Of a DNA stretch of 54,173 nucleotides, positions 2,926 through 37,150 are shown one piece after another. The notes beneath the pieces were generated by a model. The model saw only the letters and a list, made by a program, of their open reading frames with translations. It did no database searches and was not told the DNA's origin. The position numbers and the translations under genes were made by a program. This stretch comes from a virus. Taxonomy: Duplodnaviria > Caudoviricetes. The DNA lies in IMG/VR virus record IMGVR_UViG_3300013101_000011, positions 1 through 54,173 of that record. One strand, 5' to 3'. Within the stretch, counting starts at the first letter, position 1. Every line of letters begins with the position of its first letter.

Positions 2926-3318
2926 TTATACATGATCCACTATTGCGGACTTCTTCCAGATCGGACTAGTTGCACCATCGTAGTCTGCAATACAGACATA
3001 CATGAATCCCGTATCCCAGGCTATATCACCTGCGGTGTCGCCTATCGCGCCAACGCCTGTTGCAGGGGTTCTAGTTGTGCTAATATTAATCGTGTCGGTA
3101 TCGAACACAATTATGCCGTTACCGTTTGCTGTTAGGGTTATATCTTCATCTAGAACAGATGGAGTGATATCATTAAGATTGAAAACTAGAGTGCTTGTTC
3201 CAATGCCGGTGATGTATATTTCGTCGAAGTTGTCATTAACTTTATCGAACGCGTCGCGGATAGGATCGCCGGTGTTGTCATTGGCGACCGTTCCTATATT
3301 TATTGTTTGCTGTGCCAT
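2926..3318 (-). CDS. Baseplate/tail protein with T4 gp9/gp10-like N-terminus
   Basis: N-terminal INIGTVANDNTGDPIRDAFDKVNDNF motif; GATAAATA upstream. Confidence 0.7.
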   Translation of the reverse strand: MAQQTINIGTVANDNTGDPIRDAFDKVNDNFDEIYITGIGTSTLVFNLNDITPSVLDEDITLTANGNGIIVFDTDTINISTTRTPATGVGAIGDTAGDIAWDTGFMYVCIADYDGATSPIWKKSAIVDHV

Positions 3319-3362
3319 TAGTTGTAATTACCTCTATAATTACAACTATTTATCGAGAATAT

Positions 3363-8707: not shown

Positions 8708-8784
8708 TGGAGCCCTCGAGGAGATTTGAACTCCTACTTGGTCGGTTAGGAACCGACCGCACTATCCATTTATGCTACAAGGGC
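8708..8784 (-). tRNA. tRNA-Arg(CCU)
   Basis: Cloverleaf; anticodon arm GTCGG-TTCCTAA-CCGAC; encoded CCA. Confidence 0.9.
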
Positions 8785-8792
8785 ATTTTGTT

Positions 8793-8867
8793 TGGAGCTC
8801 TCTGTGAGAATTGAACTCACGTCACATCCTTACCAAGGACGTATAATTGCCATTATACTAAGAGAGC
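8793..8867 (-). tRNA. tRNA-Thr(GGU)
   Basis: Anticodon arm CGTCC-TTGGTAA-GGATG; encoded CCA. Confidence 0.9.
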
Positions 8868-8868
8868 G

Positions 8869-9240
8869 TTATTTAAATCCGTATTCTTGTTTGGTGTTGA
8901 TTAAAACTTGATGGCCGATCCTGCTCACTAACCATAATGTTTGCAGATCGTGTTCTTGCAAGGAAACTGTGTTCCCCATTGACAGCTTCATTCCGCCTGG
9001 GTAATATTTTCTGTCGTAGTGACTTTCTTGGCCGATCTTTCCATAAAGCGTTCCGCCACGGACATCTTTTGTTAGTTCGATAACTATTCGTTTTAGCCTA
9101 GGCTTAATAACTATATCGCCATGCCAGGGATTGTTTATTTCCTCGGGAGTCATTTTAAGGATAGCAATCAATATGTCTTGTTCGAGAACTTGATCCTCGA
9201 ATTCATGTATTTTGCCATCTTCCCATTTAATAATTGACAT
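8869..9240 (-). CDS. Hypothetical protein within tRNA operon 1
   Basis: 123-aa ORF after a TAAATA motif. Confidence 0.6.
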   Translation of the reverse strand: MSIIKWEDGKIHEFEDQVLEQDILIAILKMTPEEINNPWHGDIVIKPRLKRIVIELTKDVRGGTLYGKIGQESHYDRKYYPGGMKLSMGNTVSLQEHDLQTLWLVSRIGHQVLINTKQEYGFK

Positions 9241-9445
9241 ACAAGTATTTATCTTTCATAATTGGTACCACTGCCTTTAAAGCTGCCAATTGTTCTCGTT
9301 GTTTCTTCCTACGATTCCGTTTACTTTTTATGTTTCGTCCTTTCCATGTAGGTGTAATACTATGACAATTAGGGCAGAGAATTCTTAAATTTTCTCGGCG
9401 ATGATCTTCATAATCGAACCTCGTCGTTGTTATGATATTTATCAA
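9227..9445 (-). pseudogene. HNH endonuclease remnant, C-terminal part only
   Basis: ENLRILCPNCHSITPTWKGRN present; N-terminal CxxC and HNH start missing; no good start codon. Confidence 0.6.
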
Positions 9446-9470
9446 GGTTCGAATAGAGGATGATTTTAAT

Positions 9471-9561
9471 TGGTACTAGGCGGAGGAATCGAACCTGCAC
9501 CAGGGGGTTATCTGCCCAATCCGTCTATAAAACGGCCCACTCGCCACGAGTTACGCCTAGC
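9471..9561 (-). tRNA. tRNA-Ile(UAU), atypical, long variable arm
   Basis: Acceptor GCTAGGC/GCCTAGT; loop TT-TAT-AG; ~20-nt variable region; TTCGATT; ACCA. Confidence 0.7.
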
Positions 9562-9569
9562 ATTATTAT

Positions 9570-9668
9570 TGAGCCCTCCGGGGGTATCGAACCCTCTAGA
9601 ATATTCCTTCTCCCAATTCAACTATGCCGGCTGTTGAACGTGGCGCATTACCTTTATGCTAGAAGGGC
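9570..9668 (-). ncRNA. tRNA-like RNA with extended non-canonical anticodon arm
   Basis: Acceptor, D arm and TTCGATA T loop present; centre is a TTCAAC-N10-GTTGAA hairpin; no CCA. Confidence 0.5.
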
Positions 9669-9675
9669 ATTAATT

Positions 9676-9751
9676 TGGTGGGCCCCCGGAGACTTGAACT
9701 CCGCCCTAGCGATTATGAGTCGCTTGCTCTCGCCCGGTGAGCTATGGGCCC
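9676..9751 (-). tRNA. tRNA-Ile2-type (CAU)
   Basis: Anticodon arm AGCGA-CTCATAA-TCGCT, like the bacterial lysidine tRNA-Ile2; CCA. Confidence 0.85.
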
Positions 9752-9760
9752 AAATATAAC

Positions 9761-9818
9761 AGGATAGAATTTTATTTGATTAAAAGTCAAGTTGGTTTTG
9801 AGTTGCTGTTACTATCCT
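9761..9818 (-). ncRNA. Small RNA carrying a tRNA-Lys(UUU)-like anticodon stem-loop
   Basis: AGGATAG...CTATCCT closing stem, ACAGCAA segment, TTGA-CTTTTAA-TCAA hairpin. Confidence 0.5.
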
Positions 9819-9823
9819 AAAAC

Positions 9824-9898
9824 TGGTAGTGACGGTTGGAATTGAACCAACGACATGCTCCTTATGAAGGAGGGGCTTAACCATTCAGCTTCGTCACC
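9824..9898 (-). tRNA. tRNA-Met(CAU)
   Basis: Loop TTCATAA within CTCC/GGAG stem; CCA. Confidence 0.85.
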
Positions 9899-10119
9899 AT
9901 AATTCTGGCTCGTTTTTATAGAGGTGAACACTCCTCCTATTTCTTGCCATCGTCGTATAACTTTTTAATAGCTAGCCACGATGTTAAATCTCTCCTTGTC
10001 GTTTTAATAACAATTGGGTTTTTAGCAGTTTTTAAGATCTCTCTATACAGTTTGATCTTTGAAACTATCTCATAATAATCTACACTAATTGCTCATTCAT
10101 AATACACTCTCCTTTAAAA

Positions 10120-10275
10120 ATTGTATTCGTGCGCGGCCCGGGTCACAACCCCCGGTCTGTCTCTCAGTTAATGTTGGTGGCCACCAACATAAATCGATGC
10201 TAGGTGTACAGTGTCGTCAACCGTGTACTAAGGTCAGTTCATACCGTTATCTCAGCTTGCCGCGCCGAATACAAT
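10120..10275 (-). ncRNA. Structured ncRNA, copy A of the AGCTGAGA/palindrome family
   Basis: ATTGTATTCG/CGAATACAAT terminal stem; 20-nt palindrome at 10171-10190; GGTTGTGA-loop hairpin; covaries with copy B. Confidence 0.65.
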
Positions 10276-10283
10276 CTTATAAA

Positions 10284-10437
10284 ATTGTATTGATCCTGCG
10301 CCTCAGTCACAACCCTGAGATCTCGCAGTCTATGTCGGCGGCCGCCGACATAAGTGGTAGCTATGTGCGTGGAATGATCATTAACGGCCTTTTCAACAAT
10401 CAGCGCCACTTTCTCAGCTTACGCAGGTCAATACAAT
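10284..10437 (-). ncRNA. Structured ncRNA, copy B
   Basis: ATTGTATTGA/TCAATACAAT terminal stem; 22-nt palindrome at 10331-10352; CTCAG-GGTTGTGA-CTGAG hairpin. Confidence 0.65.
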
Positions 10438-10618
10438 CTTAATAACTTATTCTACAAAATTCACTTTCGTTTACTTGTTGCCAATATACTGTTCCTACTT
10501 CCGCATTTATCATATAAACCGTGCTGTCTATTTGAGTAACAATGTCTCCTAATAGACTGATAAAATACATGAATTGATCTACTGTTATACATTCAATCAT
10601 TTCCTTTTCCTCTAAATT

Positions 10619-10706
10619 TGGAGCCAACGGTCAGATTCGAACTGACGATGCCCTTTCGGATGAGGCTTACAAAGCCCCTGCATTCGACCGCTAATGCTAC
10701 GTTGGC
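10619..10706 (-). tRNA. tRNA-Thr(UGU), long variable arm
   Basis: GGGGC-TTTGTAA-GCCTC; variable arm with GAAA loop; CCA. Confidence 0.8.
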
Positions 10707-10710
10707 AAAA

Positions 10711-10856
10711 TTTATAGTGGCCTATTCTTCCTAGTCAATCCGTTTAAATATCTCTCCGCGATTCTCACCACCTGTATACGGGCCTGAGCTGGCACTTTGA
10801 GACCGACCTACGAGCTTTTGGTCATCCGCCGTGATCATCTTTCGATGCACTATAAA
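10711..10856 (-). ncRNA. Putative structured ncRNA
   Basis: TTTATAGTG/CACTATAAA terminal stem; internal CATC-GAAA-GATG hairpin; lies between tRNAs. Confidence 0.45.
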
Positions 10857-10858
10857 AT

Positions 10859-10934
10859 TGGCATCCCTAGAGAGATTCGAACTCCCATCTTTCGGCTTAG
10901 AAGGCCTAATGTTATCCAGTTGACTTATAGGGAC
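10859..10934 (-). tRNA. tRNA-Arg(UCU)
   Basis: Loop CTTCTAA; acceptor GTCCCTA/TAGGGAT; GCCA end. Confidence 0.85.
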
Positions 10935-10940
10935 ATAATT

Positions 10941-11016
10941 TGGTGCCGCAAGGAAGAGTCGAACTCCCGACCTGATGCTTACAAGGCAACTGCTCTACCA
11001 ACTGAGCTATTGCGGC
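10941..11016 (-). tRNA. tRNA-Thr(UGU)
   Basis: Canonical D arm; loop CTTGTAA; ACCA. Confidence 0.9.
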
Positions 11017-11017
11017 G

Positions 11018-11257
11018 TTATTCTATTATGACAGTTATGACTCCCGAGTTGCCCAATTTAATATTTGGATTCAGACTGTAGTCATATAGCAGTTGAATTA
11101 ATTCGTCTCGGATTACTCCGTGTCCAACGATAAATTCAGCTGTCTCTGTCTTTCCTGCTGTACGCACATCGCCTATAATTACTTCGGTTTGTCGTAAAGC
11201 ATCTTCTAGTTTGTTTCCATGGAAGTCGCGCTTTATCATACTTCTATTTATACTCAC
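11018..11257 (-). CDS. Stand-alone Smr-domain protein
   Basis: DFHG...A...FIVGHG...GNSGVITV matches Smr motifs. Confidence 0.7.
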   Translation of the reverse strand: MSINRSMIKRDFHGNKLEDALRQTEVIIGDVRTAGKTETAEFIVGHGVIRDELIQLLYDYSLNPNIKLGNSGVITVIIE

Positions 11258-11264
11258 TAATGTT

Positions 11265-11341
11265 TGGCTCCATTCAAAGGACTCGAACCTTTCGCGTGGT
11301 GATTAACAGTCACCCCCCATCACCAGGATGGGCCGAATGGA
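11265..11341 (-). tRNA. tRNA-Asn(GUU)
   Basis: GGTGA-CTGTTAA-TCACC; U1-A72, G73; CCA. Confidence 0.9.
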
Positions 11342-11540
11342 ATAAATTTGGTAGCTGCAATTCGGGATTCCAATTACGGTTAGGCAACCGACTAGCGGCG
11401 CTTTATAACCCTCGTATACTTTCCCCTAGCAACTTTCCAGGGTACGTATTATAAGCCGGTATTTGTTAGACGCTCATCAACGTCACCTTCTGTCTTCCCA
11501 AACAGTTAGGGAGGTTTCCCGGACCTCGGGAAATGTATTT

Positions 11541-11626
11541 TGGCTCCAGCGGTAGGGATCGAACCTACGCTCCCGGGGGAGTCTGCGCATTAACAGTGCG
11601 AAACATTACCTCTCTGCCACACTGGA
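11541..11626 (-). tRNA. tRNA-Asn(GUU), long variable arm
   Basis: CGCA-CTGTTAA-TGCG; CTCC/GGAG variable stem; flanked by a GTATTTTGG/CCAAAATAC inverted repeat. Confidence 0.8.
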
Positions 11627-11646
11627 CCAAAATACACTTACATCTA

Positions 11647-11760
11647 ATTTTATGACCTTGCCTATTTCTCCCTACAAATGTTACACAGGTCCTGCGACTC
11701 GAACGCTAAGGGCAGTAAACGACCACCCTGTCCACCTTGGAAAACCCGCATCATAAAAAT
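11647..11760 (-). ncRNA. Putative ncRNA with T-loop-like hairpin
   Basis: TTTTATGA/TCATAAAA terminal stem; GCG-TTCGAGT-CGC. Confidence 0.45.
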
Positions 11761-11893
11761 TAAATTTGGCGTCCCCGTTTATTTTTGTAGGGCAGGAACA
11801 AATACTCCCTAAATGGTTTTGGTATATGGGTAACAGAGGTGATCAACCTTAGCTTACATATACCGTTCGTCGCGACACTGTCCATCACAGTAT

Positions 11894-12008
11894 TAAATCA
11901 TCTTATTAACTACACTTTCCGGAATTGAACCGGCTTCTGCAGGTGCCCCACTTATCGTTCACGTCCTGGTAGCTACAACAGGATCAATGCAGTTAATAAG
12001 ATGATTTA
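11894..12008 (-). ncRNA. Long-stem RNA with T-loop hairpin overlapping the end of the ArfA-like ORF
   Basis: 18-bp perfect terminal inverted repeat, extendable with G-U pairs; CCGG-TTCAATT-CCGG. Confidence 0.55.
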
Positions 12009-12124
12009 GCCTTCTTGTCGTGTTTCCACTTACTCTTACCCTTACGGGAATAGTCCTTTTTACGATCTCGCATCGTAACAGATTTGTTATACTTGCGAGC
12101 ATGTTTTGCTACTAAGTTATTCAT
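11993..12124 (-). CDS. Small basic protein resembling ArfA-type ribosome rescue factors
   Basis: 43 aa MNNLVAKHARKYNKSVTMRDRKKDYSRKGKSKWKHDKKAKSSY; AAGGAG SD; below the ORF-track cutoff. Confidence 0.55.
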   Translation of the reverse strand: MNNLVAKHARKYNKSVTMRDRKKDYSRKGKSKWKHDKKAKSSY

Positions 12125-12321
12125 AACATTTCTCCTTTTAAAAAATTGTGCCGATGTATAGAGCCTCCCGTTTAAGAGCTTGACGCCCGTTCCCGAAGGG
12201 TATTCGAATGTACCACGGCTCGTACCTCGTTCAATTATCGCGTGGTTTTATTAGATCGCCAACTGTGCGACCACTTCCCGTTTCCCCAATTGGGTAAGGC
12301 GCTTACCACGTGCGCAGGGAT

Positions 12322-12397
12322 TGGTAGTTCCGGAAGGAATCTAACCCTCATTTCCCGGTAATCGGCCGGGCGTCTTAGACGTTAGACAGACGGAACT
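12322..12397 (-). tRNA. tRNA-Ile(GAU), atypical (C33, U37, T loop TTAGATT)
   Basis: Acceptor AGTTCCG/CGGAACT; CCCGG-CCGATTA-CCGGG; ACCA. Confidence 0.65.
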
Positions 12398-12405
12398 ATA
12401 AAATT

Positions 12406-12479
12406 TGGTTGCTGATAGTGGAATCGAACCACTGTCGGTAAGTTATCAGCTTACTGCTCTACCATTGAGCTAATCGGCA
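12406..12479 (-). tRNA. tRNA-Ile(GAU)
   Basis: GTAAG-CTGATAA-CTTAC; ACCA. Confidence 0.9.
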
Positions 12480-12596: not shown

Positions 12597-12631
12597 AAAA
12601 AAAGCCCGGGTTGCTTGCGCTTGCCGGGCTT
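12597..12631 (-). terminator. Attenuator-type intrinsic terminator of tRNA operon 1
   Basis: AAGCCCGGCAAGCGCAAGCAACCCGGGC-T7, 22 nt after the leader stop. Confidence 0.8.
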
Positions 12632-12653
12632 CTAGTATTTTATCTGTTAAGAC

Positions 12654-12740
12654 TTAAACTATCATACCCTCACGCGCACCAATAATATTTTTCATATTAT
12701 TAATTGTGGTCGTTCTTGTTATAATTGTTTCTGTGCTCAT
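12654..12740 (-). CDS. Leader peptide 1 (ANN-codon sensor), MSTETIITRTTTINNMKNIIGAREGMIV
   Basis: 19 of the first 20 codons start with A; ATG is 5 nt after GATAAATA; followed by a terminator and NNU-anticodon tRNAs. Confidence 0.8.
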   Translation of the reverse strand: MSTETIITRTTTINNMKNIIGAREGMIV

Positions 12741-12935
12741 GTGTTTATTTATCGCCTTTGTTAAATTTCGTTAAATTTCTTATCCTAAAACTTCGAGTGC
12801 CAGCTTATTCAAACGAGGACAATATATACCTCTTCGCTCTAATGCTATTTGTTCAGCTCGCAAATGATCGGTTCGCAATCAATAAGCTAGCACTCGATCT
12901 ATGTAGTATATATCCTTTGCGGATTATGTCTACCT

Positions 12936-29999: not shown

Positions 30000-30085
30000 T
30001 GGTGGGCCACGAGGGACTCGAACCCTCACTCCTTTCGAAACTGGTACCTAAAACCAGCGCGTCTGCCAAATTCCGCCAGCAGCCC
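30000..30085 (-). tRNA. tRNA-Leu(UAG)
   Basis: CTGGT-TTTAGGT-ACCAG; long variable arm; ACCA. Confidence 0.9.
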
Positions 30086-30091
30086 GTTATT

Positions 30092-30601
30092 CTATTTATT
30101 TACTTTATGTCTAAGCCTATAATATCTGCCCTGACAGGCACTACAGCTTATTCCTAATTTTTTTGCCGCCTCACGTTTTCCTATTCTATCGCAAAGCTCT
30201 ATTAATTCTTTTGGATCCATTGCTGGCTTCCGGCCTCCGTTTTTTGCCTTCGCCCTATAAATTGGATCAGTAGCATATTTCGCGTTTAACGACTTAGACA
30301 AATTCTTTCGATGTTTGTCTGATTTTCCTTGTCCTATTCCACCCTTGCCGCCTACTTTCATATTATAACATTGTTGATCTTTTACCAGCTCTTCAGTTAC
30401 GATTTCGGCCTCTCTACTAAATGCTTCGTCTGCTGTCTCGAATCTTTCGAGTACTTCTCTTTTAAATTTTTTAGTTCCGTACTTTTTAATGGCTTGTAAC
30501 AGAGCTGTCCCGGAACCTTTGTAACACGAATTAGTTAATCCATGGACTCCGATATAATATTTCCCATTAATAAGATTGGTAGTTTTATATAAAATATGCA
30601 C
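30092..30601 (-). mobile_element. Free-standing GIY-YIG (Seg-like) homing endonuclease gene in tRNA operon 2
   Basis: LYKTTNLINGKYYIG, YKGSG, YN...GG motifs; C-terminal HTH. Confidence 0.8.
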
Positions 30602-30650
30602 ATATTTATTTATATGCCATTTACCAATCTTGTATCTTTACTATCAAATT

Positions 30651-30727
30651 TGGTACGCCCCAAGGGATTTGAACCCTCATCAGTCCGGGTAAAAGCCGGA
30701 GGTAATTGCCATTTATACGAAGGACGC
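30651..30727 (-). tRNA. tRNA-Lys(UUU), C38 variant
   Basis: TCCGG-CTTTTAC-CCGGA; ACCA. Confidence 0.85.
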
Positions 30728-30737
30728 ATTAAAAATT

Positions 30738-30813
30738 TGGTGGGTCCGGTCGGGATCGAACCGACGACCAGGAGGTTAAAAGCCAACTGCTCTACCAACT
30801 GAGCTACAGACCC
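30738..30813 (-). tRNA. tRNA-Lys(UUU), mismatched anticodon stem
   Basis: Host-like body; GTTGG-CTTTTAA-CCTCC. Confidence 0.85.
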
Positions 30814-30823
30814 AAATCTAATT

Positions 30824-30914
30824 TGGTGGGACGGGCAGGGTTCGAACCTGCAACGGTGTTATTCACACTCCGGATTAAAAGTCCGGTACCTTCAGCCACT
30901 TCGGTCACCGACCC
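30824..30914 (-). tRNA. tRNA-Lys(UUU), long variable arm
   Basis: CCGGA-CTTTTAA-TCCGG; GTGT/ACAC variable stem; ACCA. Confidence 0.8.
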
Positions 30915-30988
30915 ACATTCTGTGCAAAACGATTATTCGTTGTGCAAAACGTTTTTATTCTTCGGTAAACGTTACAAACCGATTAACT

Positions 30989-31065
30989 TGGTGGGACGCC
31001 CGGGATTTGAACCCGGATCAGCCTGGGTAAGAACCAGGGGTAATTGCCATTTATACGAACGACCC
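30989..31065 (-). tRNA. tRNA-Lys(CUU)
   Basis: CCTGG-TTCTTAC-CCAGG; ACCA. Confidence 0.85.
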
Positions 31066-31142
31066 AAATTTGGGGCAGTTTATTTTAACGGATTCACTAT
31101 CTCCGCCTAGGTCAAGTCTGCCAACAACCTAGCTTGCAAGTT

Positions 31143-31217
31143 TGGTGCTCCGACGGAGAATCGAACTCCGATCGCCGGGTTGAAAGCCCAGTGTTCTAAC
31201 CATTAAACTACCAGAGC
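31143..31217 (-). tRNA. tRNA-Glu(UUC)
   Basis: CTGGG-CTTTCAA-CCCGG; ACCA. Confidence 0.85.
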
Positions 31218-31223
31218 GTAGTT

Positions 31224-31376
31224 TGGTACCCAGGGCAGGAGTCGAACCTGCAAAACAATACGACTATTTCCAGAAACATTGTTACGGCCTTTCTGGTCAT
31301 ATCCGCTCACCCTCTGCTTATTCTTCAGAGGTCACCCCCTTCAGGGAGGGCCGCTTTGCCATTTGCGTACCCGGGC
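31224..31376 (-). ncRNA. Giant 153-nt tRNA-like RNA with Leu-like body and ambiguous anticodon
   Basis: Acceptor GCCCGGG/CCTGGGT, D arm, GCAGG-TTCGACT-CCTGC, ACCA; about 80-nt structured insert. Confidence 0.65.
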
Positions 31377-31383
31377 ATAAATT

Positions 31384-31466
31384 TGGTATGCGGAGAGGGA
31401 GTCGAACCCTCAAGGGCCTTGTTTCTAAAACAAGTAGGTGTACCAATTTCCATTAGCCACCCGCGC
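31384..31466 (-). tRNA. tRNA-Leu(UAG), short variable arm and enlarged D region
   Basis: CTTGT-TTTAGAA-ACAAG; ACCA. Confidence 0.75.
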
Positions 31467-31477
31467 ATAAATAAAAC

Positions 31478-31680
31478 GTTGTAACCGATAGCCAGGATTC
31501 TGTCTTGGACAGTCATTCATCTATTGGCCGTTACCCGAGCATCATAGGATGGAACTTACCTAGCTCTGTTTACGTTGCAAACCCCTTTCGTATATCGCAG
31601 TACCAACGACCGAAGTCTCCTGCACGTTCCGGGCCTGTCCTGAGCTTCCTCACCTTACGGTGCGACTGCCTGGTTACAAC
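31478..31680 (-). ncRNA. rnpB: Minimal RNase P RNA-like gene, about 200 nt
   Basis: P1 GTTGTAACC/GGTTACAAC; CAGTCGC; GAGGAAGCTCAGGA pairs with TCCTGGCT (P4 with bulged U); TAGATGAATGACTGTCCAAGACAGAA 3' conserved block. Confidence 0.85.
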
Positions 31681-31771
31681 TAACTCTAAATCTTATACGG
31701 TTCCTATATCACCCATCGTCACCGTCAACCATTGAGGTAATGAGTAGGTTAGTACCCACGACCTGTTTGCC

Positions 31772-31851
31772 TGGTGTTACTGACGGGGATCGAACCCGCA
31801 TTTTCCTGGGTGAAAACCAAGCTGCCTAGTCCAAGTTTAGCAGACAGTAAC
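31772..31851 (-). tRNA. tRNA-Glu(UUC)
   Basis: CTTGG-TTTTCAC-CCAGG; ACCA. Confidence 0.85.
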
Positions 31852-31870
31852 ATAATTCTTTTGTACAATT

Positions 31871-31944
31871 TGGTGTGTCCCACGAGAATCAAACTCGTTC
31901 CTAAAGGGCCACAACCTCTAATGCTATCACTACACCAAGGACAC
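31871..31944 (-). tRNA. tRNA-His(GUG), atypical (A73, no G-1)
   Basis: AGAGG-TTGTGGC-CCTTT; ACCA. Confidence 0.7.
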
Positions 31945-31968
31945 TTTAAATTGTACTATAATTTACTT

Positions 31969-32044
31969 TGGGGTGACGTACGGGGTTCGAACCCGTTCCG
32001 ACTGAATCACAATCAGCCATGCTTCCAAGTACACCTACGTCACC
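31969..32044 (-). tRNA. tRNA-His(GUG)
   Basis: G-1/C73; GCTGA-TTGTGAT-TCAGT; CCA. Confidence 0.9.
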
Positions 32045-32071: not shown

Positions 32072-32103
32072 AAAAAAACCCGACTTGCTTTCGCTGCCGG
32101 GTT
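32072..32103 (-). terminator. Attenuator-type intrinsic terminator of tRNA operon 2
   Basis: AACCCGGCAGCGAAAGCAAGTCGGG-T7; its 5' arm can alternatively pair with leader segment 32158-32169. Confidence 0.8.
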
Positions 32104-32134
32104 CAGTGTAAATCTTTTGTTAGAAGGAAACTAT

Positions 32135-32221
32135 CTAAATAGTCGTTCCTTCCGCCAACACGGAACCCGTACATGATTTCTCATGTAATAAATGTTCGAG
32201 TTTTAGTGTCAGTGTGTTCAT
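32135..32221 (-). CDS. Leader peptide 2 (Leu/Lys/Glu/His sensor), MNTLTLKLEHLLHEKSCTGSVLAEGTTI
   Basis: Codons 6-15 are all L/K/E/H; ATG is 5 nt after GATAAATA; same length as leader 1. Confidence 0.8.
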   Translation of the reverse strand: MNTLTLKLEHLLHEKSCTGSVLAEGTTI

Positions 32222-32336
32222 ATGTTTATTTATCTCTTTTTTAATATTTCGTTAATTTTCTTGTTCAAAAATAAAAAGTTCTCTGTTGGACTGAGCTCCA
32301 ACATTTAATCCGGTCGCAACGTTACGGAAAGAAAAA

Positions 32337-37074: not shown

Positions 37075-37150
37075 TGGGGGAATGGCCGGGACTCGAACCC
37101 GGGACCGGCGGAGTTAAAAGCCGCTGCTCTGCCAACTGAGCTACCAAACC
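37075..37150 (-). tRNA. tRNA with UUA anticodon (ochre-suppressor-like), mismatched acceptor stem
   Basis: 76 nt; canonical numbering gives GCGGC-TT[TTA]AC-TCCGC; U-U at 3:70 and 4:69; C73; CCA. Confidence 0.65.

Follow-up and report, generated by a model that had tools for sequence, protein, structure and literature searches.

The amino-acid operon attenuators of enteric bacteria (trp, his, leu, thr, ilvGMEDA and pheA) combine a short open reading frame (ORF) holding the regulatory codons with four RNA regions, whose pairings 1:2, 2:3 and 3:4 are mutually exclusive, and an intrinsic terminator placed before the genes. The thr and ilv leaders are multivalent, sensing several amino acids, and tandem attenuators exist. 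The pheST attenuator of Escherichia coli, with its pheM leader, controls phenylalanyl-tRNA synthetase and senses the supply of charged tRNA. T-box riboswitches work without a ribosome, binding uncharged tRNA directly via a specifier codon and the T-box sequence. Many phages carry tRNA arrays, and current discussion sees in them a means of countering host defences that cleave tRNAs, and of countering the decay of host tRNAs. Here we analyse a leader, termed leader 2, that precedes a tRNA array in IMGVR_UViG_3300013101_000011. The whole 54,173-nucleotide stretch analysed (the window) is a 54-kb piece of an uncultured virus record with a CheckV completeness of 16%. We consider that leader 2 probably works as a ribosome-mediated (leader-peptide) attenuator of transcription and controls the entry of the polymerase into the phage tRNA array. 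Predicted folds and a covariance model place it in a family of probable attenuators before phage tRNA arrays that, to our knowledge, has not been described before. We favour this functional reading because the antiterminator helix is conserved and covaries across the family and because a tRNA array lies behind every member with enough sequence. Leader translation, termination, read-through, the signal sensed and the feedback are what we infer from in silico work.

All coordinates of leader 2 refer to the minus strand of the window, which holds nearly all of its long ORFs and both of its tRNA arrays. The elements of the leader and the array behind it are as follows.

32135-32221, minus: leader 2 ORF, 28 codons, ATG at 32221, stop codon TAG at 32137-32135
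32197-32212, minus: region 1 (codons 4-9), which pairs with region 2 in folds of nascent transcripts (72-126 nt) and would act as anti-antiterminator
32170-32187, minus: hairpin 1, within the ORF, 7 bp with a GAAA loop, a candidate RNA polymerase pause hairpin
32155-32169, minus: region 2 (codons 18-22), 5' strand of the antiterminator
32122-32153, minus: stop-codon hairpin GAAGGAA...TTCCTTC, with TAG in its 4-nt loop; the antiterminator encloses it
32098-32109, minus: region 3, 3' strand of the antiterminator, overlapping the 5' arm of the terminator
32072-32104, minus: intrinsic terminator, stem 32104-32076 with a GNRA-capped inner stem, then 7 U (32078-32072)
30000-32043, minus: tRNA array 2, with His, His, Glu, an RNase P-like RNA, a sub-threshold Leu(tag), Glu, Lys(ctt), three Lys(ttt), a GIY-YIG ORF and Leu(tag)

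The ORF encodes the peptide MNTLTLKLEHLLHEKSCTGSVLAEGTTI, and its alternative frames carry 3 and 1 stops. A preliminary description of this DNA had quoted codons 6-15 as a run of Leu, Lys, Glu and His codons, and the ORF at 32221-32135 reads exactly so; we refer to these codons as the sensor run. The same description had placed an 11/12 pairing over the terminator 5' arm and a hairpin with the stop codon in its loop, and both lie where it put them: CGGGTTCCGTGT (32169-32158) pairs with ACACTGAACCCG (32109-32098) with a single C/T mismatch, and the hairpin spans 32153-32122. It had further listed the downstream tRNAs as two His, two Glu, two Leu and four Lys. The His, Glu and Lys counts stand (one Lys ctt, three ttt), and at the normal threshold there is one Leu(tag). 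The second Leu tRNA is not a regular call and exists only as a Leu(tag)-like sequence at 31466-31387, with 26.7 bits in Rfam against a gathering score of 29. The terminator alone has a predicted stability of -15.2 kcal/mol, and the gap between it and the start of tRNA-His is 28 nt. Leader 2 did not vary across four DNA sequencing runs, and among the runs listed as containing the sequence none is of RNA. Between 29500 and 32900, neither the leader families nor the T-box riboswitch model of Rfam gave a match at E<=1, and in the window the matches reaching the gathering score are tRNAs alone.

Folding reproduces the terminator/antiterminator switch that had been proposed for this leader. The 160-nt RNA folds at -48.9 kcal/mol, compared with -29.2 +/- 3.4 kcal/mol for shuffled sequences (z = -5.7, 0 of 200 shuffles as good). 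The two competing states are nearly isoenergetic: the antiterminator comes out at -46.9 kcal/mol and the terminator, when 1:2 is formed as well, at -45.5 kcal/mol. The unmasked RNA favours the antiterminator, with a terminator probability, P(terminator), of 0.20. In folds of the growing transcript, region 1 pairs with region 2 first, and 2:3 becomes the minimum-energy fold once region 3 has been made; this predicted nascent 1:2 pairing, which the preliminary description had not listed, would give leader 2 the full 1:2, 2:3 and 3:4 layout. The ribosome was modelled as a 28-nt masked footprint for each A-site codon, with folding at equilibrium. P(terminator) is then lowest for codons 1-3 and 11-14 (0.16-0.21 overall, 0.18-0.21 for codons 11-14), intermediate for codons 4-10 (0.52-0.62), and highest for codons 15-25 and the stop codon (0.95-0.98). 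This per-codon folding had been set beforehand as the check, and in it the antiterminator gives way to the terminator when the ribosome moves past codon 15. The earlier proposal that a stall in the sensor run frees the antiterminator thus agrees with masked folding for most of the run and fails at codon 15 itself. These models support for leader 2 the classical logic in which a stall in the sensor would give read-through and finished translation would give termination.

The mechanism that we propose would start with a promoter just upstream of the leader, so that the 28-codon ORF is the first feature of the RNA. When the ORF is read fast, the ribosome would melt region 2 and park at the stop codon, within the hairpin between regions 2 and 3. 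Region 3 would then pair with region 4, the terminator would form, and the polymerase would halt 28 nt before tRNA-His. A ribosome stalled at the Leu, Lys, Glu or His codons would instead hold region 1 open and leave region 2 free, so that regions 2 and 3 could form the antiterminator and the polymerase could continue into the His-Glu-Lys-Leu array. The tRNAs that relieve the stall would be products of that array, making the circuit a negative-feedback, on-demand supply of phage tRNA. Such a circuit would answer the loss or damage of host tRNAs or a shortage of charged tRNA.

The same device would stand before the other array of the window, with Thr, Ile, Asn, Arg and Met codons, and before the arrays of about 20 tRNAs in related uncultured phages. 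Searching the record with leader 2 revealed a paralogue, leader 1, through an upstream block (12790-12732) that is 81% identical to 32271-32213; a motif common to both upstream blocks had 2 matches where 0 were expected.

12597-12790, minus: leader 1 unit, with the upstream block, ORF 12740-12654, hairpin 1 12702-12680, a weak 2:3 pairing, terminator 12633-12600 and a U-run to 12597
8708-12479, minus: tRNA array 1, with two Ile(gat), two Asn, Thr(tgt), Arg(tct), Thr(tgt), two Met(cat), Ile(tat), Thr(ggt) and Arg(cct)

Leader 1 has an ORF of 28 codons, the same length as that of leader 2, and its sensor is rich in Thr, Ile, Asn, Arg and Met. In the position of hairpin 1 it has a hairpin made of different sequence. 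Its terminator shares the unusual build of that of leader 2, in which the inner stem is capped by a GNRA loop, and array 1 then follows. In four short contigs of the same samples the match is confined to the upstream block (32223-32274), at about 85% identity, and the sequences then diverge; these contigs may represent additional paralogous leaders within the phage population.

Further members were found in other uncultured phages. A pattern derived from the terminator gave 20 loci in the metagenome_contigs set. With a covariance model built from 13 sequences, 17 of these were members at 58.9-120.8 bits and three were non-members at 26.1-38.8 bits; leader 1 scores 58.9 bits. In the viral_contigs set, the first terminator-derived pattern matched 48 loci, one of them true (L040), and the other 47 were discarded as chance matches. 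All six loci found there with a second pattern are members, some of them on the same contigs as the metagenome matches, and a start-region pattern gave no match in that set. A scan of genome_contigs returned six loci in bacterial metagenome-assembled genomes, with R1 scores of 30.7-43.7 bits. We rejected them as members, since they have no adjacent tRNA array, and took them as similar terminators only; one of them (L071, 43.7 bits) falls above the top non-member at 38.8 bits and below the lowest member at 58.9 bits. The tRNA region of the T5-like Vibrio phage VPT02 has no R1 match and is organised differently, with small ORFs abutting tRNAs without terminators. The leaders of two members (L063 and L051) had no real match to cultured phages by blastn.

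The members have a common architecture. An intrinsic terminator lies between the leader ORF and the regulated genes in all of them; region 2 falls within the 3' portion of the ORF, the 5' arm of the terminator is overlapped by region 3, and a hairpin between the two regions has the stop codon in it or beside it. Hairpins directly 5' of region 2 appear in the folds of most members, which were viewed non-systematically. Behind the terminator, a same-strand tRNA array follows in 16 of the 16 metagenome members with enough downstream sequence, starting after 166-285 nt in 15 of them and after 1.9 kb in one, and these arrays hold up to 20-21 tRNAs. An array is also present downstream in the four viral loci scanned. 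One contig (L051, 5090-5628) has two complete leader/terminator units in tandem behind a single sigma-70-like promoter, TTGACA-17-TAATAT, each leader using 18-19 different amino acids. L063 (810-1243) likewise has a promoter of the sigma-70 type. A third unit that looks specialised, with an antiterminator of 14 bp, is found in L040/L056, where a Phe-Tyr-Ala-Cys-Asp-Pro-Met-Val array follows it.

In the alignment of the 2:3 (antiterminator) helix, 87.6% of cells are paired; shuffles give 73.1%, and sliding the partner gives no more than 54.4%. Both sides have changed in 11 of 13 pairs, and none of 500 shuffles reaches any of these measures. When the masked ribosome covers region 2, P(terminator) is at least 0.9 in 11 of 11 distinct members, an effect that spans about a dozen codons and ends 2-5 codons before the stop in six members. 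P(terminator) drops again with the ribosome at the last few codons and the stop in 6 of the 11, and with the ribosome in the sensor part the antiterminator competes at equilibrium in 7 of them.

Could these loci be ordinary small genes, or chance ORFs, that happen to carry a constitutive terminator, with arrays transcribed independently and a codon resemblance due to chance? Small ORFs are frequent in AT-rich DNA: the window has 346 ORFs of 20-60 codons that start with ATG. Several observations count against an attenuator, and two of them, the members in which the terminator always wins and the promoter-like matches in spacers, also count in this direction. In 4 of the 11 members (leader 1, L051_A, L055 and L069) the terminator wins at equilibrium throughout. 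For leader 1 it does so whatever the ribosome position, and the antiterminator of leader 1 is weak and interrupted, with colinear 2:3 pairing only in transcripts without the 3' arm. The spacer of 166-285 nt in L052-type members could hold a second promoter, and promoter-like matches do occur in some spacers, as in that of L063, which has one 10/12 match of a kind found at chance level. The covariation alignment was model-fitted and leans towards structure, it includes the three non-members, and many of its rows are close relatives, representing about eight sequence types. Still, a chance arrangement would have to account for an antiterminator helix that covaries, for a tRNA array behind every member with enough sequence, for the mere 28 nt before tRNA-His, for two units in tandem behind one promoter in L051, and for the codon statistics of leader 1 given below. 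We regard it as very improbable, the least so favoured of the explanations that we considered.

A second possibility is that the RNA switch is real and the ORF is untranslated, the choice between structures being set by a protein, a small RNA, a tRNA (as in a T-box) or a phage antitermination factor. The sequences before leaders 1 and 2 lend it something, because they are poor ribosome-binding sequences, with Shine-Dalgarno-like purines 12-14 nt from the ATG, a point that also tells against our interpretation; structured, partly tRNA-like RNAs also lie upstream of both leaders. Against these stands the record of the reading frame. From the ATG to a stop between regions 2 and 3, each of the 12 distinct leaders (28-55 codons) reads without interruption, and the other two frames contain 39 and 51 stops. 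This frame has been kept although the leader peptides are unconserved between lineages, except for the part encoded by region 2. In 10 of the 12, a purine-rich Shine-Dalgarno-like sequence lies 6-12 nt before the ATG. The leader has no T-box or other Rfam match at E<=1, and the composition of leader 1 has no explanation at the RNA level. An untranslated switch seems improbable to us, if somewhat less so than a chance arrangement.

In the match between leader and array, the two leaders of the window differ in strength. Of the 27 residues of leader 1, 19 are amino acids whose tRNAs occur in array 1 (background 0.265), a value reached by none of 200,000 random protein windows. It ranks first among the 346 small ORFs, only 6 of 15,504 isotype sets cover as much, and the match is the maximum attainable for the composition of leader 1; at the codon level it is 18/27. 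In leader 2, 13 of 27 residues belong to the isotypes of array 2 (background 0.236, P=0.008), which ranks fifth of 346 and is equalled by 91 of 4,845 isotype sets; within its structurally defined sensor the count is 11 of 16. Cross-scores are low, at 3/27 for leader 1 on array 2 and 7/27 for leader 2 on array 1. Among the relatives, most carry a generalist leader that uses 18-20 different amino acids and stands in front of an array of about 20 tRNAs. The amino-acid diversity of leaders is only moderately unusual (P=0.005-0.03 in the L052 group, P=0.06-0.22 for L051_A, L051_B, L056 and L069). The arrays of generalist leaders read about 70% of all codons, so that these leaders do not discriminate.

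These codon data also bear on a third explanation, namely that the attenuator is real and translation-dependent and merely reports general translation activity or the stage of infection, with leader codons untuned to the array. It would then respond to signals such as ribosome availability, host shut-off or drug-like stress. The generalist leaders of most relatives fit this, and several results point the same way and weaken the case for tuned sensing. The leader of L056 is not enriched for its own array (14/40, P=0.68; 9/40 at the codon level, P=0.59), and neither is that of L069 (17/54 at the codon level, P=0.96). For leader 2 the codon-level match is only moderate and statistically marginal, with 9 of 27 codons read by array 2 tRNAs (P=0.053), and its two TTA codons and its CTC codon are unread by Leu(tag) under standard wobble. 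Comparable behaviour has also been described elsewhere: upstream ORFs (uORFs) that sense general translation stress are known (PMC12121999), and a tRNA array of Anabaena is induced by impaired translation (PMC8421152). What speaks for tuning is the match of leader 1 to array 1, unequalled among the random windows and maximal for its composition, together with the opposite divergence of the two paralogous leaders, each towards its own array. Moreover, where an array covers about 20 isotypes, a generalist leader in front of it already constitutes a match. We judge the general-activity explanation unlikely, though it deserves clearly more weight than the other two, and keep a leader-peptide attenuator that gates the tRNA array as the probable reading of leader 2.

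The way in which the leaders of the window may be expressed is suggested by their start-codon context.

32227-32271, minus: conserved upstream block common to leaders 1 and 2, including the box GATAAATA (32234-32227), 5 nt before the ATG
43599, 40536, 26872, 23405, 11251 and 9252, minus: examples among 23 box sites, each a box followed by the ATG of an ORF of 73-290 aa

The A/T-rich box is a candidate promoter box. A 7-mer of it occurs 23 times on the minus strand and 6 times on the plus strand, and at 8 of the 23 minus-strand sites an ORF-opening ATG follows after 4-5 nt; six of these open ORFs of 73-290 aa. The motif-5nt-ATG context of leaders 1 and 2 is thus common to six ordinary ORFs, and other genes of the window have an AGGA-type ribosome-binding site 7-9 nt before the ATG. 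Late promoters of the T4 type have an A/T-rich box resembling a -10 element, at a fixed distance from the transcription start, and are used with a phage sigma-like factor. The box of the window resembles that of T4 late promoters, and with its spacing transcription would begin at the A of the ATG and the mRNA would be leaderless. This pattern suggests a late-promoter-like box that would yield leaderless mRNAs.

Some further features lie next to the leaders. Upstream of leader 2 there is a degenerate tRNA-like sequence (~32410-32330, minus) with a 7-bp acceptor stem ending in CCA and a D-arm; it has a 3-nt loop in the position of the anticodon loop and was called by neither ARAGORN nor Rfam. 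Upstream of leader 1, about 100 nt (~12895-12790, minus) are enclosed by a 16-bp long-range stem, 15/16 complementary by eye, and a promoter-like site, TAGACA-16-TATACT, lies upstream of this enclosed stretch.

Array 2 contains, in an ORF-free gap, a partial match of 209 nt to class A RNase P RNA (31473-31681, minus). It scores 49.7 and 41.1 bits, with a gathering score of 100 and E of about 1e-11 to 1e-13, and stretches of the conserved core align. It may be a miniaturised phage-encoded RNase P RNA; it was not found in the five related loci searched. The same array holds a GIY-YIG homing-endonuclease ORF (30092-30601, minus; PHROG 314, E=1e-35), and the array of L040/L056 is interrupted by two ORFs similar to it. 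Also in L056/L040, at 3136-3350 (minus), relaxed ARAGORN gave tRNA-like sequences with anticodon loops of 8 nt and 6 nt and a Ser(cga)-like call, all within the array, which has a leader with many Ser and Gln codons. A lone tRNA with the anticodon tta, which would read the UAA stop codon, lies outside both arrays of the window at 37075-37150 (minus). On a 192-kb viral contig (L084, 3149-8682), three ORFs with radical-SAM domains stand immediately upstream of a leader and its tRNA array, and these may be tRNA- or RNA-modifying enzymes.

The phage itself has no close cultured relative that we could find. Its DNA ligase is less than 30% identical to known phage ligases, it shares about 44% identity with T4-like phages in an nrdC.11-like nucleotidyltransferase, and blastn of the window region against cultured phages matched only tRNA-His, at 77%. 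The neighbouring proteins of 292 and 179 aa led to no relatives in viral_contigs.

Beyond leader 2, we tentatively suggest, as one possibility with the odds still against it, that large uncultured phages carry a sensor of the tRNA pool. Its leader would sample the codons served by the array, and the tRNA genes would be turned on only when decoding stalls, providing an inducible and self-limiting counter-defence. Most members would sample all amino acids and the phage of the window subsets of them. Possible triggers would be host anticodon nucleases that cut tRNAs, or the decay of host tRNAs late in infection. The regulated product, tRNA, would also be the ligand, sensed through the ribosome, and in the phage of the window the sensor may run from leaderless late transcripts.

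The presence of the same device in related phages suggests, on the basis of these models, that these viruses turn on their own tRNAs when the decoding of the cell slows. If this is true, these would be, as far as the literature searched shows, the first tRNA genes known to be regulated through stalled ribosomes, and the leader would likewise be the first whose design samples nearly all amino acids. We found no paper on leader-peptide attenuators before tRNA arrays or on leaders sensing nearly all amino acids, and no Rfam family matches the element. A Phe-rich leader of the E. coli genes pheV and pheU, considered as a possible precedent, was dropped: the 105 nt before pheV in MG1655 contain promoter-like sequence only and no such ORF, and pheU has about 106 nt to the next gene (from annotation only). 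Such a leader-peptide device offers a compact natural sensor of decoding capacity, and the two specialised leaders in one genome constitute a built-in control of specificity.

Among described systems, the nearest functional analogue that we found is the trn operon of Anabaena sp. PCC 7120, a supernumerary and horizontally mobile tRNA array that is silent until translation is impaired (PMC8421152). That array is cellular, and the terms attenuat-, leader and terminator are absent from the main text of PMC8421152, which describes no leader-peptide mechanism. The toiL uORF upstream of topAI-yjhQ in E. coli is likewise a short ORF that acts as a broad sensor of translation stress via ribosome stalling (PMC12121999); it controls a toxin-antitoxin transcript, is unlinked to tRNA genes and is no phage element.

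T-box riboswitches resemble the phage leaders in that a terminator/antiterminator decision reports the status of tRNA before translation-related genes. They differ in that the phage leaders keep a conserved ORF, and the region of leader 2 has no T-box match at E<=1. The pheST attenuator is similar as a case of leader-peptide attenuation acting on a component of the translation apparatus. It serves one protein gene and one amino acid in a cellular genome, whereas the phage device would serve tRNA arrays and several or all codon families. The layout is that of leader-peptide attenuators: the amino-acid operon attenuators likewise have the short ORF, the four regions whose pairings are predicted in leader 2, the terminator, leaders with codons for several amino acids, and tandem units. 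The phage leaders have no sequence or Rfam relationship to them, and most of the family samples 18-20 amino acids where the leaders of those operons use a run of one. Finally, amino-acid operon attenuators control biosynthetic enzymes, whereas the phage leaders stand before viral tRNA genes, so that the product relieving the stall would be the tRNA itself.

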